Assembly (NCBI GenBank): GCA_017428485.1 | Contig: JAFRQT010000057.1 | Span: 22,745 to 86,744 of the forward strand | Origin: Bacilli bacterium | Lineage (GTDB): Bacteria; Bacillota_I; Bacilli_A; RF39; UBA660 | Length of the DNA stretch: 64,000 nucleotides | Direction of reading: 5' to 3' | Shown: positions 7,105-52,656 of the stretch, piece by piece | Numbering within the stretch: position 1 is the first letter of the stretch | How the letters are laid out: each line of letters starts with the position of its first letter | The notes under the pieces: generated by a model | The model's input: only the letters and a program-made list of their open reading frames with translations | Databases searched by the model: none | Told to the model about the DNA's origin: nothing | Position numbers and translations under genes: made by a program

Positions 7105-7180
7105 GGCCCATTGGTGAAATGGTTAACACATCGCCCTCTCAAGGCGACATTCATGGGTTCAAATCCCATATGGGTCACCA
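7105..7180 (+). tRNA. tRNA-Glu (anticodon CUC), CCA encoded
   Basis: Hand-folded cloverleaf. Acceptor GGCCCAT/ATGGGTC, anticodon stem TCGCC/GGCGA with loop CT-CTC-AA, and T arm ATGGG-TTCAAAT-CCCAT. The overall sequence resembles Bacillus tRNA-Glu. Confidence 0.85.
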
Positions 7181-7269: not shown

Positions 7270-8607
7270 ATGTGGAAATTAATTACTATTCTAGCTTGTA
7301 AAATTACAAATAGATTAAGTAAACTTACAGGTCATGGTGGTTCTTCTATTGGAGGAAAAGTTGCTTTAAAATTAAATAAAAATATTTTAAAGAAAATTAA
7401 ACTGCCTAAGTATGTAATTGGAATTACTGGTTCTAGTGGTAAAAGTTCATCCACTGAACTTATGTACAATATCTTAACACGTAATAACATGAAAGTTATT
7501 TATAATAAAGAAGGAAGTAACACTATTGCCGGCATTACATCACTTATATTAAATAAATGTTCTTTAAGTGGTAAATTAAAAGTAGATGTACTTCTTATGG
7601 AACTTGATGAACAATTTTTAAAATATATTTTTCCACATGTTAAACCAACACACTTAATGATTACTAATATTACAAGAGATCAGCCTCCTAGAAACTCACA
7701 TCCATATAAAATATTTAATGCAATTAAAAATGCGATTCCAGATAAAACACACATTGTTATCAATGTAGATGATCCTTTTGTTAACAGAATGAGAATTAAT
7801 CATAAAGGTGGAGTTACAACTTATGGAATTGATAAAAATGATTATTCGTATAGAATTAATTTAAATAATTTAGATGCAGCATATTGCCCTATTTGTAATG
7901 AAAAATTAGAATATGATTTTTACCATTATGGACATATTGGATCTTATCATTGCCCTAAATATCATTTTAATAGAGGTAATCCAGAATTTGAAGCAAAAGA
8001 CGTTGATATAGATAACCAAAGTATAACAATTAATGAGCATAAAATACATCTTCCATCTAACTTTTTATATACTGCTTACTTTGTTACTGGTTGTTATGCT
8101 CTATCAAAAATAATTGGTCTTAATGACGAAGATATATTAAAAGTATTAAATGATGAATCTATTACAACAAAGCGTTTAGAAATATATGATTTCCATAATA
8201 GGAAATGGCAATTACTTGTTAGTAAAAATGAAAATAATTTAAGTTATAAACAATCACTTGATTATATTCGTCATCAAAGTGGTGATAAAACTATAGTACT
8301 TGGATTTGATAATTCTAGTAGACGTTATAAAGAAAATGATCTTTCTTGGATATGGGATATAGATTTTGAAATACTAAATGACTCATCAATTAAAAATATA
8401 GTTTTAATCGGTAAATATTGTTATGATATGCTAGTTAGAATGGAATATGCAAAAATTGATAAAAAGAAACTATTATTAGTTGAAAATATGTCTGATTTAG
8501 CTGAAACAATTAAAACTAAAACAGAAGGAAAAATTTATTCAATGAATTGCTTTGATAAAGAAATAGAAATTAAAAGAATAATTAAGGAGGAATCAAAAAA
8601 TGATTAA
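7270..8607 (+). CDS. murT: lipid II isoglutaminyl synthase subunit MurT (Mur-ligase family)
   Basis: Contains the Mur ligase P-loop GITGSSGKSS, the Cys-rich ribbon CPICNEKLEYDF..GSYHCPKYHF, and a C-terminal DUF1727-like region. It overlaps gatD. The track start at 7261 is a GTG inside the SD (aGGTGAtttatATG), so ATG 7270 is preferred. Confidence 0.85.
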   Translation: MWKLITILACKITNRLSKLTGHGGSSIGGKVALKLNKNILKKIKLPKYVIGITGSSGKSSSTELMYNILTRNNMKVIYNKEGSNTIAGITSLILNKCSLSGKLKVDVLLMELDEQFLKYIFPHVKPTHLMITNITRDQPPRNSHPYKIFNAIKNAIPDKTHIVINVDDPFVNRMRINHKGGVTTYGIDKNDYSYRINLNNLDAAYCPICNEKLEYDFYHYGHIGSYHCPKYHFNRGNPEFEAKDVDIDNQSITINEHKIHLPSNFLYTAYFVTGCYALSKIIGLNDEDILKVLNDESITTKRLEIYDFHNRKWQLLVSKNENNLSYKQSLDYIRHQSGDKTIVLGFDNSSRRYKENDLSWIWDIDFEILNDSSIKNIVLIGKYCYDMLVRMEYAKIDKKKLLLVENMSDLAETIKTKTEGKIYSMNCFDKEIEIKRIIKEESKND

Positions 8608-9322
8608 TATATTACATTTATATTATGATCTTCTTAATTTATATGGTGAAAATGGAAATACAAGATGCTTAGTATATAATTTAGAGAGAAATAAAATTAA
8701 AGTTAAAGTTGATTTAAAAAGCCTTGGAGACAAAATAGATTTTACTAAATATGATTTAATATATATATCTTCTGGTGATGAAGAATCTATAGAGCTTGCA
8801 TTAATTGATATATTAAAATACAAAAAAGAATTAACTAAATTTATTGAAGATAATAAATACTTAATTTTAACAGGAAATGCAATCGATTTATTTGGAAGTC
8901 ATATTAAGACAAATAAACAAGATTTAGATGCTTTAGGCATATTTGATTATTATACAGAATATATTGAAAGCAGTAAGTTTAAAAATGCCTCTACTGATAG
9001 AATTGTTGGTGAGGTTGAAGCAACAACAAAACTAATTGATAAAAAGATTATTGGTTTTCAAAATAGATGTGACTTAGTATTTAATGTGAAGACTCCACTT
9101 TTTAAAACTAAAACAAAATATTCAAATGATTGCAATCAAGAAGATGAAGGATTTACATATAAAAATGTTTATGCAACTCATATAATTGGTCCCTTATTTA
9201 TAAGGAATCCATATTTCACAGATTATATTTTAAATAAGCTATGTGAAGAAAAAAAATTAAAATATAAAGCAATTGATGATTCTGCTAAAATTGCATATAA
9301 AAAATACTTAAATTTAAATTAA
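8600..9322 (+). CDS. gatD: lipid II isoglutaminyl synthase glutaminase subunit GatD (CobQ-type amidotransferase)
   Basis: 240 aa. The N-terminus LNLYGENGNTRCL is typical of GatD, and the gene is translationally coupled to murT. Confidence 0.8.
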   Translation: MINILHLYYDLLNLYGENGNTRCLVYNLERNKIKVKVDLKSLGDKIDFTKYDLIYISSGDEESIELALIDILKYKKELTKFIEDNKYLILTGNAIDLFGSHIKTNKQDLDALGIFDYYTEYIESSKFKNASTDRIVGEVEATTKLIDKKIIGFQNRCDLVFNVKTPLFKTKTKYSNDCNQEDEGFTYKNVYATHIIGPLFIRNPYFTDYILNKLCEEKKLKYKAIDDSAKIAYKKYLNLN

Positions 9323-9392
9323 GTATTTTTTTTATTAACTAATTATTATATTTTTATATTTTTTTGTGTTCAAAAATTAAATAATTAGTGAT

Positions 9393-9420
9393 TTGACAAT
9401 AATTTTGAAAGAATTAAAAT
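9393..9420 (+). promoter_or_regulatory. promoter of small-peptide gene copy 1
   Basis: TTGACA (9393-9398), 16-nt spacer, TAAAAT (9415-9420). The predicted TSS is ~9427-9428, at the start of the conserved GAACAACTGAT element. Confidence 0.65.
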
Positions 9421-9477
9421 GTATTTTGAACAACTGATTGTTAGATGTTATCACACTCATAAAGGAGGTGATACAAG

Positions 9478-9561
9478 ATGATTAAAAAAGATTTTTTGAT
9501 TATGTCATTAGTCTTTATAATTCTATTACTTATTATCCTACTATATGTAGTTTTAATATAA
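9478..9561 (+). CDS. 27-aa hydrophobic peptide, candidate type I toxin (copy 1)
   Basis: ATG preceded by AAGGAGGTGA at 7-nt spacing. Peptide MIKKDFLIMSLVFIILLLIILLYVVLI has a charged N-terminus and one TM-length helix. It falls below the ORF-track cutoff. Confidence 0.6.
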   Translation: MIKKDFLIMSLVFIILLLIILLYVVLI

Positions 9562-9562
9562 A

Positions 9563-9632
9563 TAAAAAACCTAACTAAGAATAGTTAGGATTCCAAACAA
9601 GAACACCTAACATTCGAATATCAGTTGTTCCT
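9563..9632 (-). ncRNA. predicted ~70-nt antisense RNA (candidate antitoxin, copy 1)
   Basis: Runs from the minus-strand promoter at 9639-9667 to the hairpin cctaacta-agaa-tagttagg (9570-9589). That hairpin is followed by TTTTTT only on the minus strand. The RNA is complementary to the 3' region downstream of the peptide stop codon. Confidence 0.45.
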
Positions 9633-9638
9633 ATAAAA

Positions 9639-9667
9639 ATATTATCATATTTTATTATTTTTGTAAA
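9639..9667 (-). promoter_or_regulatory. convergent promoter for the antisense RNA (copy 1)
   Basis: The minus strand reads TTTACA-17nt-TAATAT with a TG extended -10 (tatGaTAATAT). Confidence 0.55.
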
Positions 9668-9789
9668 TATAACTAATTTTTAAAGAATTTGTTATTTTAT
9701 ATACTTATTCTTTAATTATTGATTAATGCTTTTTAACCATTATTTATTATTTGTAAAATTACATATTCAAAAATTAAATAATTAGTGAT

Positions 9790-9817
9790 TTGACAATAAT
9801 TTTGAAAGAATTAAAAT
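9790..9817 (+). promoter_or_regulatory. promoter of small-peptide gene copy 2
   Basis: TTGACA (9790-9795), 16 nt, TAAAAT (9812-9817). Identical to copy 1. Confidence 0.65.
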
Positions 9818-9874
9818 GTATTTTGAACAACTGATTGTTAGGTGTTATCACACTCATAAAGGAGGTGATACAAG

Positions 9875-9958
9875 ATGATTAAAAAAGATTTTTTGATTAT
9901 GTCACTAATCTTTATAATCCTATTACTTATTATCCTACTATATGTAGTTTTAATATAA
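9875..9958 (+). CDS. 27-aa hydrophobic peptide, candidate type I toxin (copy 2)
   Basis: Peptide MIKKDFLIMSLIFIILLLIILLYVVLI with the same SD and spacing. It differs from copy 1 by 2 synonymous changes and V12I. Confidence 0.6.
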   Translation: MIKKDFLIMSLIFIILLLIILLYVVLI

Positions 9959-9959
9959 A

Positions 9960-10032
9960 TAAAAAGCCTAACTAAGAATAGTTAGGTTTTACCAACAAGG
10001 TAACACCTGACATTTGAATATCAGTTGTTCCT
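9960..10032 (-). ncRNA. predicted antisense RNA (candidate antitoxin, copy 2)
   Basis: Runs from the promoter at 10039-10067 to the hairpin at 9967-9986, followed by CTTTTT on the minus strand. It lies immediately downstream of the psd stop on the same strand. Confidence 0.45.
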
Positions 10033-10038
10033 ATAAAA

Positions 10039-10067
10039 ATATTATCATATTCTGTTATTTTTGTAAA
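10039..10067 (-). promoter_or_regulatory. convergent promoter for the antisense RNA (copy 2)
   Basis: TTTACA (reverse complement of 10062-10067), 17 nt, TAATAT (reverse complement of 10039-10044) with TG. The -35 lies in the last codons of psd. Confidence 0.55.
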
Positions 10068-10930
10068 TTATTTTTAATACCAATTCTTTCACCATATTTA
10101 ACTATAGTCTCGATATTCTCTTTTGAATTATTAACAATATCATCATCTAAAATAATTGTATCTTTTTTAAATAATAAAACTATTGTAGATCCACCAAATT
10201 CAAAATATCCTTTTTCTTCTCCTTTAAAGAAACTATATTCTTTATGATGATTTTTAATTCTTCCTACTCCTAGTGCACCAATATCTATATCTATAACTTT
10301 ACCAAAATTATTTGTATTTAATATAGTATATTCACGAGAATTAGTTTTAAAGAAATTATAATGTTTTAATGATATTGGCTGTACCGTATGAAATGTTCCT
10401 TTTATGTAATAATTATCACTTTTAGTGCCACTATCAATATAGCAATATCTATGATAATTATCAGTTGATAATCTAAAAACTAAAGCATATCCATCAGTAT
10501 ATTCTTTCATTATTTTTTTATCTACTAAAGTATCTATACTATAATATGATTCTTTTATTTTTAAAGTTAAATCTTTAGTTATTTTATATGCTAATAACTT
10601 TGAATCACAAGGAGATATTAATATACCTTTTCTTGCATTAATTGGTCTTTTAACTTCTTTTATTTTTCTTGTAAAGAAATCATTATATGAAGTGTATTCT
10701 TTATTTTCATAATCATACATATTTATATTATTTTCTTTAATAAATTTATCTATTTTTTTAATAGAAGATTTACTATTCATATATTTACCTATCAAATTAG
10801 TTATAGGTTTACTAATAGCTATTTTAATAAATAATCTTCCAATAAAATTACCATAAAAAAAATTAAGAGCTTTATTAGACTCTATAATTATATTTTCTTT
10901 ACTATTTCTATTTCTTACTATGGTCTCCAT
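10055..10930 (-). CDS. psd: phosphatidylserine decarboxylase proenzyme
   Basis: 291 aa. The C-terminal FEFGGSTIVLLF contains the G-S-T self-cleavage motif. It overlaps pssA by 13 nt. Confidence 0.85.
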   Translation of the reverse strand: METIVRNRNSKENIIIESNKALNFFYGNFIGRLFIKIAISKPITNLIGKYMNSKSSIKKIDKFIKENNINMYDYENKEYTSYNDFFTRKIKEVKRPINARKGILISPCDSKLLAYKITKDLTLKIKESYYSIDTLVDKKIMKEYTDGYALVFRLSTDNYHRYCYIDSGTKSDNYYIKGTFHTVQPISLKHYNFFKTNSREYTILNTNNFGKVIDIDIGALGVGRIKNHHKEYSFFKGEEKGYFEFGGSTIVLLFKKDTIILDDDIVNNSKENIETIVKYGERIGIKNNLQK

Positions 10931-11634: not shown

Positions 11635-13206
11635 ATTAATTAAATTTTCCATACTAATATCTTTATCAGTAATTGTTTTTAATACTTTCTTAGATTTATT
11701 ATTTTTTGTATTACTTGCATGTTTAATAATTGACTTCTCATATATGTTTCTTACAAATCTAGCATTACCAAAGTTTTCACTATTTCTATTTTCATCAATT
11801 ATACGTCTTAATTCTTTATGAGCTTCTTCTGTAACCTCAAATCCTGCTTTTCTTACCATACCATCAAATATTGAAATTAATTCATCTGTTGTATAATCAT
11901 CAAATTCTAAAGTATAACCTATTCTTGACGCAATACCAGAGTTTGCATTTAAGAATGCTTGCATTTCTTTAGTATAACCAGCAAATATGCATACAAGATT
12001 ATCTCTATTATTTTCCATTTCAGCAATTAATGTTCCAATTGCATCATCATTATATGAATTATTTTTGTCTCCAAGCATATAAGCTTCATCAACAAATAAT
12101 ATTCCACCTTTTGCTTTATTAATTACTTCATTTGTTTTAATAGCGGTTTGTCCAACATATTCAGCTATTAAATCCTTACTTGTTACTTCAACTAATTTAT
12201 TCTCTTTAATGTAATGTAAATTATAAAGAATTCCACAAAGTAACCTAGCAATTGTTGTTTTACCAGTTCCAGGATTACCTAAGAATATCATATGTAAGTT
12301 AACACTGCCTATTTTTAGTGTTCCCTCCGTTTTCTCTTTTAGTTTCATTAAATCAACTAAATCATATAAAGTCTTTTTAACTTTATCAAGACCAACTAAT
12401 TCATTTAAATCAGCAAAGATTTCATCAATTGTTTTTTCTTCCTTTAATAAAGGAACACTATTATTTAATATTAAATAATTTATTAAATTATTTTTGTATG
12501 TTTCAGAATCAAGCTCACTCTTATCATACGTAGCAGTTATATAATCAAGTAATTTAACTTCTGTTTCTTCATCTAAATTAGTATTTTCTAATATTTCATT
12601 ATAGATTACAGATTTCTCTTCTCTCTCTTCTACTAAATTAAATACAAAATATTTATCTTTTAGATCTCTATTATAAGTAAATATATTATTAAGTTCACTT
12701 TGATTATTACTAATAATTAGACTTATATTTTTATTACTTTCTATTTCATCTTCAAGTAAATGCATATATTTTTGTTTATCATTAACGCTTTCAAGTTCTA
12801 AACCTTGTAGTTCTTTTAAAACAATTATTCCATTTTCACTATATTCTTTATGAAAAGGATTATCTTCTAATTTATATAATGATATTTCACACACTTTATT
12901 ATTTGTTACATATTTGCTCTTATTCACTGCAGATGAAATAATTTTGATGATAGATTCAACTGTTTTATCAGTTAATTTAACAACACTTATATTAAAAGGA
13001 ATATATCTTTTTTCATTATTATAATTATATATATAATCAATTATTTTTTTAAATAAGTCTTTAGATTCATCATTAATATGTAATTTATCAATCTCTTCTT
13101 CTAAATTAATATTATTATCAGTTTCTAAATTGAGTTGTTTTTTTCTATCCTCATACTCTCCAAAGAAATCTCTATATACATCACTTAAAATATTTTCTGA
13201 GTTCAT
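11632..13206 (-). CDS. AAA+ ATPase, SpoVK/CbbX-type, with a long unknown N-terminal region
   Basis: 524 aa. Walker A GNPGTGKTTIARLL, Walker B ILFVDEAY, and the AAA lid are all in the C-terminal ~270 aa. Confidence 0.75.
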   Translation of the reverse strand: MNSENILSDVYRDFFGEYEDRKKQLNLETDNNINLEEEIDKLHINDESKDLFKKIIDYIYNYNNEKRYIPFNISVVKLTDKTVESIIKIISSAVNKSKYVTNNKVCEISLYKLEDNPFHKEYSENGIIVLKELQGLELESVNDKQKYMHLLEDEIESNKNISLIISNNQSELNNIFTYNRDLKDKYFVFNLVEEREEKSVIYNEILENTNLDEETEVKLLDYITATYDKSELDSETYKNNLINYLILNNSVPLLKEEKTIDEIFADLNELVGLDKVKKTLYDLVDLMKLKEKTEGTLKIGSVNLHMIFLGNPGTGKTTIARLLCGILYNLHYIKENKLVEVTSKDLIAEYVGQTAIKTNEVINKAKGGILFVDEAYMLGDKNNSYNDDAIGTLIAEMENNRDNLVCIFAGYTKEMQAFLNANSGIASRIGYTLEFDDYTTDELISIFDGMVRKAGFEVTEEAHKELRRIIDENRNSENFGNARFVRNIYEKSIIKHASNTKNNKSKKVLKTITDKDISMENLIN

Positions 13207-13218
13207 AATTGACTCCTA

Positions 13219-14364
13219 CTACTTAATATTTATTTCTAACATTTTATCTTTTAATTCTTTTTCTAATGCTTCTAATTCTTTCTCAGATTCTTGACGTTTA
13301 ATACGTCCATTCTTATGAATTTCAACAACTTTATTTAAAGTTTCGATAATATCTTGATTTGTTTTTCTTAATGTCTCAATATCAACAATTGCTCTTTCAG
13401 ATTCTTCAGCAATCTTAATTGAACCTTGTTTTAAAGTCTCACTATTCTTCTTAAGCATATCATTAGTTAAATCAGTAACAGCTTTTTGATTTTCAAGAGC
13501 AACTTTAGCTCTATTAATTCCAAGAGCAAGTACCATTTGATTCTTCCATAATGGAATAGTATTAGTAATTGAACTTTGAATTTTTTCAACCAATTCTGCT
13601 TCATTACTTTGAAGTAATCTAATTTGTGGTGCCATTTGAATTGAAATTAATCTAGTAGTTTTTAAATCATAAATTTTCTTTTCAAATCTATTAATAATAT
13701 TTTCCATATCATTAACCTTTTGAATATCTAACTGTTCACCTGATGCTTGTGCTTTTGCTTGAAGTTCAGGAAGAACTACATTCTTTAATTCTTCAATTTT
13801 CTTTTCACCAGCAATAATATATAAAGATATTTCTTTAAAATATTGTAAATTCTTTTCATACATTCCATCAAATAATGTAATGTCTTTTAGCATTTGTAAT
13901 CTTTGTTTTTCTAAAGCAGCTTCAATAGTATCAACATTCTTTTCTACTTTAGAATATTTAGCTATTAATTTATCAATTTCTTTCTTAACACTTGAAAATA
14001 TTTTTTCAAATAAATTCATATTGTCAACATCAACAACTGCTTTATCAAATGATTTTAATTCAGCTACTAATTTAGCAAGTTCATCACCCACTTCACCAGT
14101 CTCTTTAGTTCTTACATTTTCTAATACTTCATCAGAAAACTTAGATATTTTATTTTGAGCAGCAGCTCCATACTGTAATATTTGAGTGTTATCATAAACA
14201 TCAATTTTTTCATTAAATTCTTTAATTGCTTCTTTTTCTTCATCAGTAAGTAATTCATAATTTAATGAATCTTCAATTTTTTCTTCTGTTACTTTCTTTT
14301 CTTCAACTAATTCTTCAACTTTCTTATTCTTTTTTTCATCAAAATTGATTTTTAATTCATTCAT
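13219..14364 (-). CDS. TelA/YaaN-family toxic anion resistance protein
   Basis: 381-aa coiled-coil-rich protein. The segment LQYGAAAQNKISKFSDEVLENVRTKETGEVGDEL is typical of the TelA family. Confidence 0.8.
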   Translation of the reverse strand: MNELKINFDEKKNKKVEELVEEKKVTEEKIEDSLNYELLTDEEKEAIKEFNEKIDVYDNTQILQYGAAAQNKISKFSDEVLENVRTKETGEVGDELAKLVAELKSFDKAVVDVDNMNLFEKIFSSVKKEIDKLIAKYSKVEKNVDTIEAALEKQRLQMLKDITLFDGMYEKNLQYFKEISLYIIAGEKKIEELKNVVLPELQAKAQASGEQLDIQKVNDMENIINRFEKKIYDLKTTRLISIQMAPQIRLLQSNEAELVEKIQSSITNTIPLWKNQMVLALGINRAKVALENQKAVTDLTNDMLKKNSETLKQGSIKIAEESERAIVDIETLRKTNQDIIETLNKVVEIHKNGRIKRQESEKELEALEKELKDKMLEINIK

Positions 14365-48308: not shown

Positions 48309-50021
48309 CTAACTTTCCATTTTACTAAGTAGTTTTTTATGAATACCAGGTTCAACAATATTAAGTGCATTTAGTATTATCTCTAGGGATTCTTTATAAT
48401 TTCCTTTATTAAATGCTTTAGTAGAAGCAATTAATCCTAATTCTACTTCTCTATTTGTTGATCTATATCTATTACCATATACTATAGCCATTTCAGCCAT
48501 TGCCGCTGTTTTAGTAGCACTAGATGCTGTCTGATAAAGTTTTAATGCTAAATCTTGAGCAGTATCTACTCTTAAATTAAGTGTTCTTATTGATATTGGT
48601 TTCTTTTCAATTTCCTTATTTATTTCACCAATAGCGTCAACTGCCTCCTTAAGCTCAACATAAAATTTTTCAGGTATTATAGGTAAATTATAATCTTTAA
48701 TTTTATATTTAGAATTATTAATTATATTTTTAATTTCAAATAATTGTTCACGAGCACGTGCTTCATCTTCTTTTAGACTACCTAAATTTTTAAGAGTTGT
48801 TTCTAATTTATCTTCTACTTTAGATAAATTTACAGCAACCAACTCACATTCATTATTTAATTTTGAATAAGGCATTACTCTTGCTAATGTTCTATCATTA
48901 ATTAATTTAAAACTTTCTTTAACTTCTAATAAATCTTTATTAATTTCATCTACAACTTTTATTTCTTCATTTGATAAATCATATGTATCTTTAATATTGT
49001 CTATTTCAGAATATAAATTTCTAACTATTGATGACATTTTATTTAATCTTTCACCAACATTAATTATTCCTCTTTCATATTCTCTTTTGCCACGCTTTTC
49101 ATTATCAAAATCAGTATATATTTTTTCATAATAATCAACTAATGTTTTTAAATCAAATATTGAATCTTGTAAGTTTAATACTTTTAATCTATCTAGTATT
49201 TCACTTATCTTTTTATTTGTTTCAGCTATATTGTATTCTATATTTAAATACTCTATATTATATCCATCTCTTTTTAACTTCTGTGCAATATTTTCAATAT
49301 CTTTCATCTTTTTAGGAAGAATCATATTAGATATCAAAAGAATTGTAGGAGCTTCTTCTACAACAATATTAATATTGTTAATCATATCATCTAATGCTTT
49401 TACTATACGTCCAAATTCATCATAATTTTTCTTTTGTATAGCAACTTCAAAAGCACTAAATAACTTATCAATATTTTCAAATTGTAATTCTATAGGAGTG
49501 TTAACTCCAGTATAATCATTTTTATGTTTATTATATTTAAATACTACTTCTCTATATAAACTCTTTAATTTAGTTACTGTTTCTCTATTTCTTTCTTCAC
49601 TTTCAGTTAAATCTTTAATTTCACTTAATAATTTAATTGATTTAGCTTTAACATGGAATATATCTTTTTCCGCATTTAAAAGTAATGTGTTAGCTTGATC
49701 ATAATCAGCATTAACACAAGCAGTTTCTGCTTCAACAAGTTCATCAGTCAAAAATGGTAAATCTACTTTTTCAAGTTCATCAAATCTTTTTTTCCAATCA
49801 TTAACATCAGCTTGTAATTTTTTATTATTAGCAAGTTTCTCTGCCTTATCTAAATCTGTTATTAATGTAGAAGATATTATAAGATTTTTTTCAGTATTTA
49901 ATTTATCTAAATTATTTATAATATTCTTCTTCTTTTTATTCTTAAAAGCAACTATTAAAACAGTCAAAAATATTACTAATAATAAAAGTACTATTCCAAT
50001 TATTAATGTTGTCTTATTCAT
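48309..50021 (-). CDS. ezrA: septation ring formation regulator EzrA
   Basis: About 570 aa with one N-terminal TM helix and long coiled coils in EzrA-like spacing. ATG 50021 after GGAGGA is preferred over the track start at 50033. Confidence 0.8.
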   Translation of the reverse strand: MNKTTLIIGIVLLLLVIFLTVLIVAFKNKKKKNIINNLDKLNTEKNLIISSTLITDLDKAEKLANNKKLQADVNDWKKRFDELEKVDLPFLTDELVEAETACVNADYDQANTLLLNAEKDIFHVKAKSIKLLSEIKDLTESEERNRETVTKLKSLYREVVFKYNKHKNDYTGVNTPIELQFENIDKLFSAFEVAIQKKNYDEFGRIVKALDDMINNINIVVEEAPTILLISNMILPKKMKDIENIAQKLKRDGYNIEYLNIEYNIAETNKKISEILDRLKVLNLQDSIFDLKTLVDYYEKIYTDFDNEKRGKREYERGIINVGERLNKMSSIVRNLYSEIDNIKDTYDLSNEEIKVVDEINKDLLEVKESFKLINDRTLARVMPYSKLNNECELVAVNLSKVEDKLETTLKNLGSLKEDEARAREQLFEIKNIINNSKYKIKDYNLPIIPEKFYVELKEAVDAIGEINKEIEKKPISIRTLNLRVDTAQDLALKLYQTASSATKTAAMAEMAIVYGNRYRSTNREVELGLIASTKAFNKGNYKESLEIILNALNIVEPGIHKKLLSKMES

Positions 50022-50231
50022 AATATCCTCCATATATCATTTTAGCACATAAATAAATATTTTTGTAGTCTTTTCCAAAATAAAATAAGGAATAATCCTT
50101 AATTTTACATTTTATTAAAGCAACTAATTATTTGATTTTATACTTTGTTTTGATATTTAAAGTAATAAAATCTCTTAGAGATTATCAAATTTTGAGTATG
50201 AATATTATATTAATAATTGAATTTTACCAAT

Positions 50232-50259
50232 TTGATTTATTTTTTCTAATATATAAAAT
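50232..50259 (+). promoter_or_regulatory. promoter of small-peptide gene copy 3
   Basis: TTGATT, 16 nt, TAAAAT (50254-50259). The predicted TSS again falls at the G of GAACAACTGAT (50267). Confidence 0.55.
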
Positions 50260-50315
50260 TGTTACTGAACAACTGATTGTTAGGTGTTATCACACTCATA
50301 AAGGAGGTGATGCAA

Positions 50316-50399
50316 GTGACTAAAAAGGATTTTCTGATTTCATCATTAATCTTTCTTATTCTCTTACTTATTATTCTACTTTTTGTAGTTTTAATATAA
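50316..50399 (+). CDS. 27-aa hydrophobic peptide, candidate type I toxin (copy 3, GTG start)
   Basis: Peptide (M)TKKDFLISSLIFLILLLIILLFVVLI with the same AAGGAGGTGA SD and spacing. It differs from copy 2 by 7 synonymous codon changes and 4 replacements. Confidence 0.55.
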   Translation: MTKKDFLISSLIFLILLLIILLFVVLI

Positions 50400-50467
50400 A
50401 AAAGCACCTAACTAGAATTAGTTAGGTCTACAAAGTAACACCTGACCTTCGAAAATCAGTTGTTCAC
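50398..50467 (-). ncRNA. predicted antisense RNA (candidate antitoxin, copy 3)
   Basis: Runs from the promoter at 50474-50502 to the 9-bp hairpin acctaacta-gaat-tagttaggt (50406-50427), followed by GCTTTTTT on the minus strand. Confidence 0.45.
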
Positions 50468-50473
50468 ACTAAA

Positions 50474-50502
50474 ATAGTATCATAAAATAAACAAATTGTA
50501 AA
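50474..50502 (-). promoter_or_regulatory. convergent promoter for the antisense RNA (copy 3)
   Basis: The minus strand reads TTTACA-17nt-TACTAT with a TG extended -10 (tatGaTACTAT). Its position is conserved relative to copies 1 and 2. Confidence 0.5.
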
Positions 50503-50529
50503 TGAATATCAAAAAAATACACAAATGTG

Positions 50530-50616: not shown

Positions 50617-52656
50617 ATGAATTTAAGTGAAGAAGAATTTTCAAAAGAAAAGAAACATCTAGACTTAACTTTAAAACTTTTAAGAGAGCAAATATCAACT
50701 CTTGCTCAAGACTTATATGACAATGAAGAAAAACAACTAGAATTTAAAAAGTTCGTGTGGGATACACGAGCTGAACTTGATCCGACTGAAATGAAAACTA
50801 TTCTTTCGAATAATGAACAAGAAATAGACAACTTAGAAATGAAAGCAAAATACTATAGAAAACTCTATAAAATACAAAACTCACCATATTTTGCAAAAAT
50901 AGTTTTTGAGACTAAGGATGATGGAAAAAAAGATATTTATATTGGACTTACCTATTTAACAAAAGATCAAGATAACATAATCTATGACTGGAGAGCACCA
51001 ATATCAAGTATCTTCTATGATTATGAAAGCGGTAAAGCATCATATGAAGCTCCAGGCGGTGTAATAGAAGGCTATCTTCATAATAAAAGGCAATTTACAA
51101 TTGAAGATGCAAAAATAAAAAGAGTATTTGACTCAAAACTAAATGTTCAAGATGAATTATTGCAAGAAGTACTTGCTAATAAAACAGACGAATATATGAA
51201 AAATATAGTTAATACTATTCAAACAGAACAAAATGCAATCATAAGAAATGTAAAAGATAAAAACCTAATTGTACAAGGAATTGCTGGTTCAGGTAAAACG
51301 TCAGTAGCACTTCATAGAATAGCATTCTTACTATATAAAATTAAAAATTTAACAAGTGATAAAGTATTAATATTCGCACCAAACAAAGTATTTAGTGAAT
51401 ATATCTCAAATGTACTTCCAGAACTAGGAGAAGAAAATACAAAAGAAACAACATTTAGTGATTTTTTAGAGACCTATATAACAGAATACAAATCAATAGA
51501 GTCATTCACATCATTTATAGAAAGATATTACAAATATGAAGAACAATTTATTGATCTTATAAAATTTAAACAATCAAATGAAATAATACCAATTATAGAG
51601 AAATATATAAAGAATTATGTAAATAAAGCAGAGTTTACTGAAGAAATATTTAATCATGAACTTTATATGGAAAAAGAAAAACTAAACTACTACTTAAAAG
51701 AAAGGTACTCCTCTATTCCACTATTTGAAAGAATAGATGAAATATCAAATAAAATAGCTGAAATGGAATTTAGAGGTAATAAATCTAAAGCAAGACAAGT
51801 TAGAAAATGGCTAAGGGAAAGAATTAATATCTCGCTAGACATGAAAGAGATATATAAATCACTTTTTAAAAGTAAAGAATTCATAAGTGCCTATGGAAAA
51901 GAATTACCAGAAAGTTATATAAATAGACTTGATGAAAAAAATATATCCTTTGAAGATGCTTGCTTATTTGTATATATGAAGAGTTTGCTAATGTTCTTAG
52001 GAAATGATTATTCAATAGAACAAACAATAATAGATGAAGCACAAGATTATAATATACTTCAATATATATTACTCAAGAAAATATTAAAGAAAAGTAAATT
52101 CACAATACTAGGAGATATTAATCAAACAATTAACCCTTATTATCAATACAAATCATTAGAAGACTTAAAAACAGTATTCAATGATGGTGGCAATTATATA
52201 GAATTAACTAAAACATATAGATCTAGTCCTGAAATAATTGAACATGCAAATAAGATACTGGGACTTAACTTGGTATCAGCAATTAGAAGAGATACAAAAA
52301 TACCGGTTGAATTTAGAGAAGAAGATAATTTAAAAGAACAACTAATAAAAGATATAAATTCACTTGTTGAAGATAATAAAAGTATTGCAATAATAACTAA
52401 AAATGATGTTGAAGCAAATAAAATATATAATTTATTACATAAAGATTTAGAAGACTTAACACTAATAAGCAACAATTCAAAAACATTCTCAAGAAAATTA
52501 GTAGTTCTTCCTTCTTATATGGCAAAAGGATTAGAATTCGATGCAACAATTATATACACAAATAAAGATAATAAATACACATATGAAGAAAGATATTTAT
52601 ACTATGTATCATGTACGCGTAGTCAACATCATTTGATAATTTATAATAACAATTAA
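50617..52656 (+). CDS. helD: HelD-like (helicase IV / UvrD-like) RNA polymerase-associated ATPase
   Basis: 679 aa. N-terminal coiled-coil arm, Walker A VQGIAGSGKTSVALHRIAFLLY, Walker B IIDEAQDY, and a C-terminal UvrD-like domain (AKGLEFD). Confidence 0.85.
   Translation: MNLSEEEFSKEKKHLDLTLKLLREQISTLAQDLYDNEEKQLEFKKFVWDTRAELDPTEMKTILSNNEQEIDNLEMKAKYYRKLYKIQNSPYFAKIVFETKDDGKKDIYIGLTYLTKDQDNIIYDWRAPISSIFYDYESGKASYEAPGGVIEGYLHNKRQFTIEDAKIKRVFDSKLNVQDELLQEVLANKTDEYMKNIVNTIQTEQNAIIRNVKDKNLIVQGIAGSGKTSVALHRIAFLLYKIKNLTSDKVLIFAPNKVFSEYISNVLPELGEENTKETTFSDFLETYITEYKSIESFTSFIERYYKYEEQFIDLIKFKQSNEIIPIIEKYIKNYVNKAEFTEEIFNHELYMEKEKLNYYLKERYSSIPLFERIDEISNKIAEMEFRGNKSKARQVRKWLRERINISLDMKEIYKSLFKSKEFISAYGKELPESYINRLDEKNISFEDACLFVYMKSLLMFLGNDYSIEQTIIDEAQDYNILQYILLKKILKKSKFTILGDINQTINPYYQYKSLEDLKTVFNDGGNYIELTKTYRSSPEIIEHANKILGLNLVSAIRRDTKIPVEFREEDNLKEQLIKDINSLVEDNKSIAIITKNDVEANKIYNLLHKDLEDLTLISNNSKTFSRKLVVLPSYMAKGLEFDATIIYTNKDNKYTYEERYLYYVSCTRSQHHLIIYNNN

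Follow-up and report, generated by a model that had tools for sequence, protein, structure and literature searches.

What is encoded by the two direct repeats that lie between the convergent genes gatD and psd in an uncultured gut bacterium, and do they constitute a toxin–antitoxin system? The locus belongs to a 64,000-nt stretch of DNA (hereafter the window) from a Bacilli bacterium (assembly GCA_017428485.1, contig JAFRQT010000057.1, positions 22,745 to 86,744), and a sequence-only reading had proposed that each repeat is a type I toxin–antitoxin module, comprising a gene for a tiny hydrophobic peptide and a convergent antisense RNA. In following up this proposal we identified a total of 15 units, three of them in the window (W1, W2 and W3) and 12 elsewhere, in a rumen metagenome-assembled genome (MAG) and on gut-metagenome contigs (L-numbers denote the relative contigs, and a and b the copies of a tandem pair). 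In our judgement these units probably represent a new family of type I toxin–antitoxin, or toxin–antitoxin-like, modules with a layout resembling that of par (Fst/RNA II). The predictions that such a reading makes for the sequence held, namely purifying selection on the peptide gene, footprints of promoters, Shine–Dalgarno (SD) sequence and terminator, and lineage-specific gain in multiple copies.

The gap between gatD (8600-9322, + strand, Pfam GATase_3, with murT upstream of it) and psd (10055-10930, - strand, PS_Dcarbxylase) spans 9323-10054. Two direct repeats were indeed present in this region, at 9371-9681 and 9768-10080, with a start-to-start distance of 397 nt and an identity of 92-94.5%. 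They had been described as filling the gap, and both do sit there, but W2 extends into psd, to which it supplies the last codons (LQK) and the stop. Each repeat contains the TTGACA-16-TAAAAT promoter, the ~50-nt leader, the SD (AAGGAGGTGA in W1 and W2) and the 27-codon open reading frame (ORF) that had been reported, within a module of ~300 nt of which there are three copies in the window. In a promoter scan, the toxin promoters of W1 and W2 had 11/12 consensus matches; as the number of promoter-like sequences found in the whole region (11) was not in excess of the shuffled expectation (11.6), the promoters are supported by their conservation in the 15 units and not by the scan. A terminator scan detected two terminators specific to the minus strand, the hairpins of W1 and W2, against 0.0 expected, and both the 27-nt leader and the 20-nt hairpin were found again in the window, where 0 matches were expected for either. 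As such, the recurrence of the unit and its anatomy are far beyond chance. The features of W1, with the basis for each in brackets, are as follows.

9371-9681, + strand: whole module, from toxin promoter to small RNA (sRNA) promoter (direct repeat and nhmmer boundaries)
9393-9420, + strand: predicted toxin promoter, TTGACA-16-TAAAAT, with a predicted start near G9428 (promoter scan, column conservation)
9428-9449, + strand: 5' box of the leader, GAACAACTGATTGTTAGATGTT, the same as the 5' end of the predicted antisense RNA (inverted repeats I5/I19; 19 of 22 columns invariant)
9446-9475, + strand: predicted leader hairpin, (U)AUCAC-A-CUC / GAG-GUGAU(A), burying the SD GGAGG at 9464-9468 (folding)
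9478-9561, + strand: ORF of 27 codons, MIKKDFLIMSLVFIILLLIILLYVVLI (ORF list, coding signature)
9566-9575: element P1, the 5' flank and 5' arm of the shared hairpin (pairing with the leader)
9570-9589, - strand: shared hairpin, a perfect 8 bp, predicted to terminate the minus strand only, with its U-tract at 9569-9560 (terminator scan)
9602-9630, + strand: 3' box, AACACCTAACA-loop-ATCAGTTGTTC, which is the leader in reverse complement and would form stem-loop 1 of the sRNA when read on the minus strand (inverted repeat, folds)
9560-9632, - strand: predicted antisense sRNA of ~71 nt with two stem-loops (fold z = -4.3, consensus fold)
9639-9667, - strand: predicted sRNA promoter, TTTACA-17-TAATAT with a TG (promoter scan, column conservation)

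Two further sets of short ORFs were rejected, both being outside the conserved pattern: the 20-codon ORFs at 9419-9481 and 9816-9878, which start within the -10 box, upstream of the predicted transcript start, and the minus-strand ORFs of 27 codons at 9377-9460 and 9774-9857, which are without an SD.

The 12 units outside the window came from a search for relatives that the sequence-only reading had suggested, and a consensus fold was built as well. Genome and metagenome collections were scanned with exact patterns (5' box plus SD for the genomes) and nhmmer was used on the hits. These scans returned true matches in one genome (L008, the rumen MAG 'uncultured Clostridiales bacterium RUG840', which also has a tandem pair) and on seven metagenome contigs (L023, L025, L026, L027, L029, L031 and L032), whilst three extra units (L033a, L033b and L041) were reached through contigs with homologues of Psd and EzrA. 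Seventeen of the 18 hits in the genome collection, all except L008, were chance matches in unrelated bacteria, as were the viral hit L019 and the metagenome hits L024, L028 and L030. The units occupy five contexts, all of them among housekeeping genes: gatD-psd, ezrA-helD, a DHH phosphoesterase/short-chain dehydrogenase (SDR) locus, a position beside a family-2 glycosyltransferase gene, and a position upstream of rpsL. The host has a G+C content of 26%, and homologues of the flanking proteins are labelled 'Clostridium sp. CAG:1000' and 'Bacilli bacterium', which together point to a low-GC Firmicute that is uncultured. The earlier expectation of multiple copies was borne out both by the third unit in the window and by tandem pairs at two unrelated loci (gatD-psd and glycosyltransferase/DUF1846). 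W3, for which a GTG start replaces the ATG, contains the same elements.

50210-50515, + strand: whole module, between ezrA (48309-50033, - strand) and a UvrD/HelD-type helicase gene (50617-52656, + strand) (leader and hairpin recurrence, nhmmer)
50232-50259, + strand: predicted toxin promoter, TTGATT-16-TAAAAT (read from sequence, aligned)
50267-50288, + strand: leader 5' box (leader recurrence)
50316-50399, + strand: ORF with GTG start, VTKKDFLISSLIFLILLLIILLFVVLI, that is (M)TKKDFLISSLIFLILLLIILLFVVLI (translation, coding signature)
50407-50426, - strand: hairpin, predicted minus-strand terminator (hairpin recurrence, T counts)
50437-50465, + strand: 3' box (sequence, alignment)
50398-50467, - strand: predicted antisense sRNA (consensus fold)
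50474-50502, - strand: predicted sRNA promoter, TTTACA-17-TACTAT with a TG (read from sequence, aligned)

In a related species (L032, 5745-6246) the unit lies directly upstream of the rpsL promoter in the same orientation, such that transcription from the toxin promoter, if it continued past the unit, would run into the operon for ribosomal proteins; the placement of W3 upstream of the helicase gene resembles this arrangement.

The peptide had been said to match no named toxin family, and our searches agree. There was no hit in Pfam or NCBIfam at E<=10, the Fst and Hok models included, nothing meaningful for the unit in PADLOC, no exact match among 15 billion predicted proteins, and nothing at E<=10 among 5.8 billion proteins for a query in which two peptides were concatenated. 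For the RNA, no antitoxin family was found in Rfam even at E<=10; the matches listed there were noise (tsr26, with 25.7 bits against a gathering score of 141, and snoRNA models), and a known RNA family was rejected. The unit had no match among PLSDB plasmids, only weak AT-rich hits among GenBank phages and nothing in four scans of IMG/VR, and a phage or plasmid origin was rejected on these searches. Homology to a known element other than a toxin–antitoxin system was likewise looked for, with neither an Rfam family match nor an association with a transposase coming to light.

In all 12 units analysed for coding potential the ORF comprises exactly 27 codons, opens with ATG or GTG and closes with TAA, and the ORFs of the other three units are intact. 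Across the 12, pairwise synonymous (pS) and non-synonymous (pN) differences were 0.31 and 0.13 in frame, compared with 0.16/0.15 and 0.20/0.16 in the other two frames; on the strength of this pattern, the ORF is under purifying selection. The consensus peptide reads M-x-K-K-[DE]-x-L-I-x-[SPL]-L-[IV]-[FL]-x-I-I-x-x-I-x-L-L-[FYL]-[VI]-[VA]-L-I, with an M-x-K-K-D/E head followed by 21-22 hydrophobic residues that run to the C-terminus, approximately the length of one membrane helix. Hydrophobic residues make up 76-81% of the peptide, which has one predicted transmembrane segment, its own promoter and its own SD, the latter with the consensus sequence 8-9 nt upstream of the start in every unit. 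A Pro/Gly (PXXXG) motif was looked for in the peptide and is absent.

The distribution of conserved columns, calculated for 14 units, follows the predicted elements closely. The toxin promoter had a mean column identity of 0.95 in its -35 and 0.94 in its -10 box, with 0.69 in the spacer, and the sRNA promoter 0.93 and 0.87, with 0.62 in the spacer. Values were 0.95 for the SD, 0.89 for the ORF, 0.90-0.96 for the hairpin stems as against 0.59 for the hairpin loop, and 0.59-0.78 for loops and linkers. The most conserved parts of the unit are the two boxes, at 0.99 (5' box) and 0.96-0.98 (3' box). A perfect 8-bp hairpin beyond the stop codon, with a U-tract on the minus strand only, had been noted for the two repeats, and the one-sided U-tract of the shared hairpin was found in 15/15 units: in the 8 nt after the stem there are 6-7 T residues on the minus strand and 0-3 on the plus strand (15 units counted). 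Because the T-run is on the minus strand only, the hairpin is predicted to end a minus-strand RNA of ~71 nt, in line with the ~70 nt that had been forecast from the TTTACA-17-TAATAT promoter with its TG, which was also present.

A feature that the sequence-only reading did not mention is an inverted repeat that would give both RNAs the same 5' end. On the DNA it consists of the 5' box (9428-9449 in W1) and the 3' box (9602-9630), such that the mRNA would begin with GAACAACUGAU-UGUUAGGUGUU and the sRNA with GAACAACUGAU-(7-nt loop)-UGUCAGGUGUU, ~22 nt being in common. Folding of the leader predicts a hairpin that pairs four of the five SD bases in 15/15 units, with a mean unpaired probability for the SD of ~0.2 or less in almost every unit. 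This pairing survives sequence change (UA to CG and several wobble changes, with CUUCCU/AGGAGG instead in L008b), and translation is predicted to be intrinsically limited by the leader hairpin. For the sRNA, the predicted fold (z = -4.3) has a consensus of stem-loop 1 plus the terminator.

The leader is also complementary to two elements downstream of the ORF. With the 3' box (P2) it would form a helix of 21 bp, in which 98% of cells are paired, the pairing probability is 0.99 in 14/15 units and the fold has z = -5.0, with one compensatory pair (UA to CG) and several wobble changes; this helix is predicted to form if the mRNA reads through the hairpin. The second element, P1 (AACACCUAAC), begins where the A-tract ends and reaches into the hairpin's 5' arm, and P2 lies ~30 nt further on. 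In the leader-P1 helix 97.9% of cells are paired, the observed score was reached by 11/500 shuffles, and there are two independent compensatory pairs (UA to CG in L008b/L026 and GC to UA in L029). Were the mRNA to end shortly after the hairpin, pairing of the leader with P1 is predicted to win over formation of the hairpin in 9-10 of the 15 units, W1 and W2 not among them. The leader is thus predicted to close onto the 3' end of the mRNA in either isoform, and the sRNA has perfect antisense complementarity to all of P1, the hairpin and P2. Taken together, these pairings lend modest support to leader-to-3'-end closure, which we infer.

Two other interpretations of the RNA sequences were considered and rejected. 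An apparent anti-SD sequence in the sRNA (GUGUUACCUU) raised the possibility of action in trans on the SD or leader, in the manner of SprA1AS or par; in none of the units did the co-fold energy improve on that of shuffled sRNAs. A LexA or Cheo-box site has the spacing GAAC-N4-GTTC, which the GAAC...GTTC in the boxes, inspected by eye, does not fit. We also observed that GUUAGGUGUU, or the complement of this motif, is found at three places in each unit, namely the leader, the hairpin and its flank, and the 3' box (9428-9449, 9566-9589 and 9602-9630 in W1), that the hairpin region resembles a degenerate second copy of the 3' box, and that L008b and L026 have the same U-to-C change in all three copies of the motif.

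The history of the units could be traced at several sites. The tandem pair at gatD-psd is also present in L033 (10851-11561; Psd 93% identical), whilst no unit was found within 10 kb in L035 (Psd 85%), L037/L038 (79%) or L039/L040 (78%), where the gaps between gatD and psd measure 16, 50 and 108 nt; given this distribution, the tandem pair is a lineage-specific insertion. Since Psd ends differently in the relatives without a unit (NLED* and GKKC*), the insertion rewrote the 3' end of psd: the last codons of the gene (LQK in the window, LQKQ in L033) and its stop lie inside the -35 box and spacer of a W2-type sRNA promoter (10055-10067 in the window). Furthermore, transcription of psd-pssA would now stop at the terminator of the sRNA, which would give the transcript the sRNA sequence as its 3' untranslated region. 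These relationships can be read from the features of W2.

9768-10080, + strand: whole module (direct repeat and nhmmer boundaries)
9790-9817, + strand: predicted toxin promoter, TTGACA-16-TAAAAT (promoter scan)
9825-9846, + strand: leader 5' box (sequence recurrence)
9875-9958, + strand: ORF, MIKKDFLIMSLIFIILLLIILLYVVLI (ORF list)
9967-9986, - strand: hairpin, a perfect 8 bp, predicted minus-strand terminator and the place where the psd-pssA transcript would also end (terminator scan)
10002-10030, + strand: 3' box (inverted repeat, folds)
9957-10032, - strand: predicted antisense sRNA (promoter and terminator scan, consensus fold)
10039-10067, - strand: predicted sRNA promoter, TTTACA-17-TAATAT with a TG; the -35 box and spacer overlap the last codons and stop of psd (10055-10066) (promoter scan)

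A target-site duplication was sought by comparing filled and empty gatD-psd sites and was rejected, as the short AT-rich similarities seen there are unconvincing. The ezrA site is filled only in the clade of the window itself (L031, L041), relatives with EzrA 81-86% identical being empty or having other genes there. At the DHH/SDR locus, an orthologous unit is present in three taxa whose SDR proteins are 73-91% identical, and its divergence has been about as slow as that of the coding DNA beside it. The glycosyltransferase/DUF1846 locus contains two units in L008 (3596-4303) and one in L026 (1090-1397), the latter having a promoter region like that of L008a and a body like that of L008b, which suggests that the copy number changed through unequal recombination inside the conserved 5' box. 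Tandem copies in one genome are closer to each other (0.945 for W1-W2, 0.932 for L033a-L033b) than are orthologues across genomes (0.89-0.91), and the peptides of the two L033 copies are the same, MIKKDFLIRLLIFIILLLIILLYVVLI, an indication that the copies underwent gene conversion or arose by independent duplications. In L041 (9500-9830, - strand; EzrA 97% identical), the orthologue of W3, an 18-nt deletion removes the toxin -10 box and there is a T-to-A change in the 5' box, with the ORF and the sRNA promoter and terminator intact; decay of this unit may have begun with the toxin.

The surroundings of gatD and psd offered some further observations. A 20-bp palindrome, ATATAAAAAATACTTAAATT / AAATTAAGTATTTTTTTTAT, spans the gatD stop codon (9295-9335 in the window) and is kept in relatives without a unit, within the 16-50 nt gap of the convergent genes; it is probably the ancestral terminator shared by gatD and psd. 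In L035 an extra gene with a KilA-N domain (12985-13857), which the window does not have, lies between murT and spoVAC, and the neighbourhood therefore accepts other small insertions. In the window, a single tRNA gene lies between spoVAC and murT (7105-7177, + strand) and is the sole Rfam match above the gathering score in the 64 kb.

Amongst known systems, the sequence-only reading had likened the locus to txpA/RatA and bsrG/SR4. The convergent, 3'-overlapping sRNA in that comparison stands, but par (Fst/RNA II; Enterococcus faecalis pAD1 and chromosomal relatives) is closer, given the short sRNA, the shared-hairpin end and an overlap with only the last few codons. The predicted features that the units have in common with par are convergent promoters and a hairpin belonging to both RNAs, an antitoxin RNA that is short and leaves the ORF uncovered, concealment of the SD in a stem-loop of the leader, a helix in which the very 5' end of the toxin mRNA is locked up, and a tiny peptide with N-terminal charges (K, D) and one transmembrane helix (PMC7472228). 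They differ from par in several respects: its direct repeats DRa and DRb make the 5' regions complementary and block translation, whereas here the repeats are inverted and the 5' regions identical; pairing of the sRNA with the leader and SD is predicted to be no better here than in shuffled controls; the terminator of par is bidirectional, whilst the U-tract here is on the minus strand only; and the peptide is without PXXXG and a charged tail, with no match to the Fst model in Pfam and no hit in Rfam.

In hok/sok and in Helicobacter aapA1/IsoA1, as studied by the Gerdes and Darfeuille laboratories, pairing of the 5' and 3' ends of the mRNA reportedly keeps a stable, translationally inert pool, and 5'-3' end pairing is predicted here too (P 0.99, z -5, with few compensatory changes, all among close relatives). 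Those systems are Gram-negative, and their antisense RNA is encoded within the 5' region or ORF of the mRNA and binds only the 3'-processed form; here, by contrast, the antisense gene is 3' of the ORF and would target the 3' partner of the closing helix, and there is no Hok hit in Pfam. With enterobacterial toxins of the Ibs/ShoB type there is no sequence similarity and no Pfam hit, and their layout differs, Sib spanning the entire ibs ORF and OhsC being encoded divergently. They do resemble the present peptides in being very short (18-26 aa), in having no charged C-terminal tail and in their multi-copy or tandem loci (PMC2887945).

The Bacillus subtilis loci txpA/RatA, bsrG/SR4, bsrE/SR5 and yonT/SR6 likewise have a convergent antisense RNA that overlaps the 3' end of the toxin mRNA and lacks complementarity to the start region (PMC4147584, PMC3834814). 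Their antitoxins, of 100-220 nt, extend over the 3' part of the ORF, whereas here an RNA of ~71 nt would reach at most the last ~4 codons; moreover, their toxins have 28-60 aa, charged C-termini and mostly prophage locations (PMC6563280), in contrast to the 27 aa, hydrophobic C-terminus and core-genome intergenic locations found here. No homology to TxpA, BsrG, BsrE or YonT was detected, there being no Pfam or NCBIfam hit and no protein relatives. SprA1/SprA1AS (PepA1) of Staphylococcus aureus is similar in its ~30-aa toxin and in an antisense RNA of ~60 nt that overlaps only the 3' end of the mRNA (PMC8594479); the target of SprA1AS, however, is the ribosome-binding site, on which its 5' domain acts in trans (PMC8594479, PMC6563280), a mode that co-folding does not support here. 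The type I modules of Clostridioides difficile (CD2517.1/RCd8 and others) are also from a Firmicute and have convergent antisense RNAs (PMC5961336, PMC6563280), but their toxins have 34-59 aa and charged C-termini and lie beside CRISPR arrays or in prophages (PMC6563280). No similarity to these modules was detected, and no phage or plasmid relatives of the unit. As far as these comparisons reach, the unit is homologous to none of the systems considered.

The hallmarks of type I systems include small transmembrane toxins, convergent sRNAs, SD-sequestering stem-loops, helices that sequester 5' ends and tandem duplication (PMC7472228, PMC2887945, PMC8594479, PMC4147584). The anatomy of the units, their conservation, the complementarities and the few compensatory changes are features of the DNA as it stands; the mechanism that we infer from here on covers both transcripts, the toxicity of the peptide, the direction of regulation and the RNases involved. 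The plus-strand promoter would produce an mRNA with a 50-nt leader and the 27-aa ORF, and the peptide would lodge in the membrane through its one helix, the KKD head on the inner side, presumably damaging the membrane when present in quantity. In cis, the leader hairpin that buries the SD would hold translation down, and closure of the leader onto P1 or P2 would yield a stable, poorly translated pool of mRNA. From the minus-strand promoter, an sRNA of ~71 nt with two hairpins would be made, ending at the only real intrinsic terminator of the unit; it would compete with the leader for the 3' end of the mRNA, displace the leader and form a long perfect duplex. RNase III might then cut the duplex and the toxin mRNA decay, by analogy with txpA/RatA and bsrG/SR4 (PMC4147584, PMC3834814), for which type of locus RNase III-dependent decay is the expected action (PMC4147584, PMC3834814).

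A more specific version, which we advance tentatively and hold to be rather doubtful, is that the antitoxin is a molecular mimic of the toxin leader, the 5' end of the mRNA and the sRNA competing for both P1 and P2. The sRNA gene would then be an inverted copy of the leader and the leader-closed mRNA a protected, silent store; displacement of the leader by the sRNA would expose the ends of the mRNA and lead to cleavage of the duplex or, alternatively, loss of the sRNA would let a 3'-trimmed mRNA refold and be translated.

A number of points weigh against a type I toxin–antitoxin family and the closure of its mRNA. Many small membrane proteins are not toxins, and the host is an uncultured gut bacterium that is represented by metagenomes only. 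Support from covariation is thin (3/35 pairs and 2/10 pairs), coming from close relatives in which most pairs are invariant, and there are a few uncompensated mismatches, in W1, W3, L029 and L041. The complementarity of the boxes is equivalent to the statement that both RNAs need the same 5' motif. There is no convincing plus-strand terminator in the units. Lastly, the peptide is without the polar or charged C-terminal tail that is typical of most Gram-positive type I toxins (PMC6563280, PMC2887945).

The missing tail (PMC6563280) is also an argument for a small membrane protein that is not toxic, a regulator or a subunit of a complex, tuned by a cis-antisense RNA and bearing no relation to toxin–antitoxin systems. 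The ORF is conserved and well equipped for translation, the units lie among housekeeping genes rather than in prophages, and one locus has been kept through speciation, all of which would fit such a protein. It is at odds with the lack of a conserved partner gene or operon, the five contexts being unrelated, with the tandem duplications and the gain of complete promoter-to-promoter units at new sites, and with the tight sequestration of the SD; in one relative, moreover, the 18-nt deletion takes the -10 box of the peptide gene and spares the sRNA gene, as expected if the peptide is harmful or dispensable. On balance we regard a non-toxic membrane protein as unlikely. That the best-conserved parts are non-coding (0.99 for the 5' box and 0.96-0.98 for the 3' box, against 0.89 for the ORF) and the predicted RNAs strongly structured might instead indicate a pair of sense and antisense small RNAs whose 27-codon frame is untranslated. 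Such an RNA-only unit seems improbable to us, as it would leave several observations on the frame without a cause: the frame-specific excess of synonymous change, a start kept through an ATG/GTG switch, the invariant length and stop codon, a consensus SD 8-9 nt upstream in every unit, and a residue pattern (KKD/E, LI-x-S-L and LL-[FYL]-[VI]-[VA]-LI) that is retained.

The lineage-specific insertion into a 16-nt gap, the dispersed copies and the internal inverted repeat further bring to mind a selfish miniature mobile repeat with GAACAACTGAT...ATCAGTTGTTC as its ends, for which the promoters and ORF would be incidental. Homology between copies, however, reaches both -35 boxes, placing the inverted repeat inside the promoters and not at the termini; comparison of filled with empty sites revealed no recognizable target-site duplication, no transposase or phage association was found, and the pattern of conservation is precisely that expected of two transcription units and an ORF. 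A repeat of this kind is in our view highly improbable, and mobility and a toxin–antitoxin function are in any case not mutually exclusive.

New type I families turn up regularly, and the family proposed here, if confirmed, would be a new one from a lineage of very AT-rich, uncultured Firmicutes in the ruminant gut, whose 84-nt genes are of a sort invisible to gene callers. It would provide a compact natural case of a toxin leader and an antitoxin RNA that have a sequence in common and are rivals for the mRNA 3' end. Should the mimicry proposal prove true, it would represent a new type I regulatory logic, in which a three-way strand-exchange switch is built from one reiterated palindromic motif, together with a family of toxins that have no charged tail. 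In practice, the 27-aa peptide might be put to use as a minimal tool, either for counter-selection or as a membrane-active agent. Furthermore, the insertion of a module between two convergent housekeeping genes that lay 16 nt apart, with the stop codon and terminator of one gene exchanged for sequence of the module, bears on how toxin–antitoxin modules spread and become fixed in core genomes.

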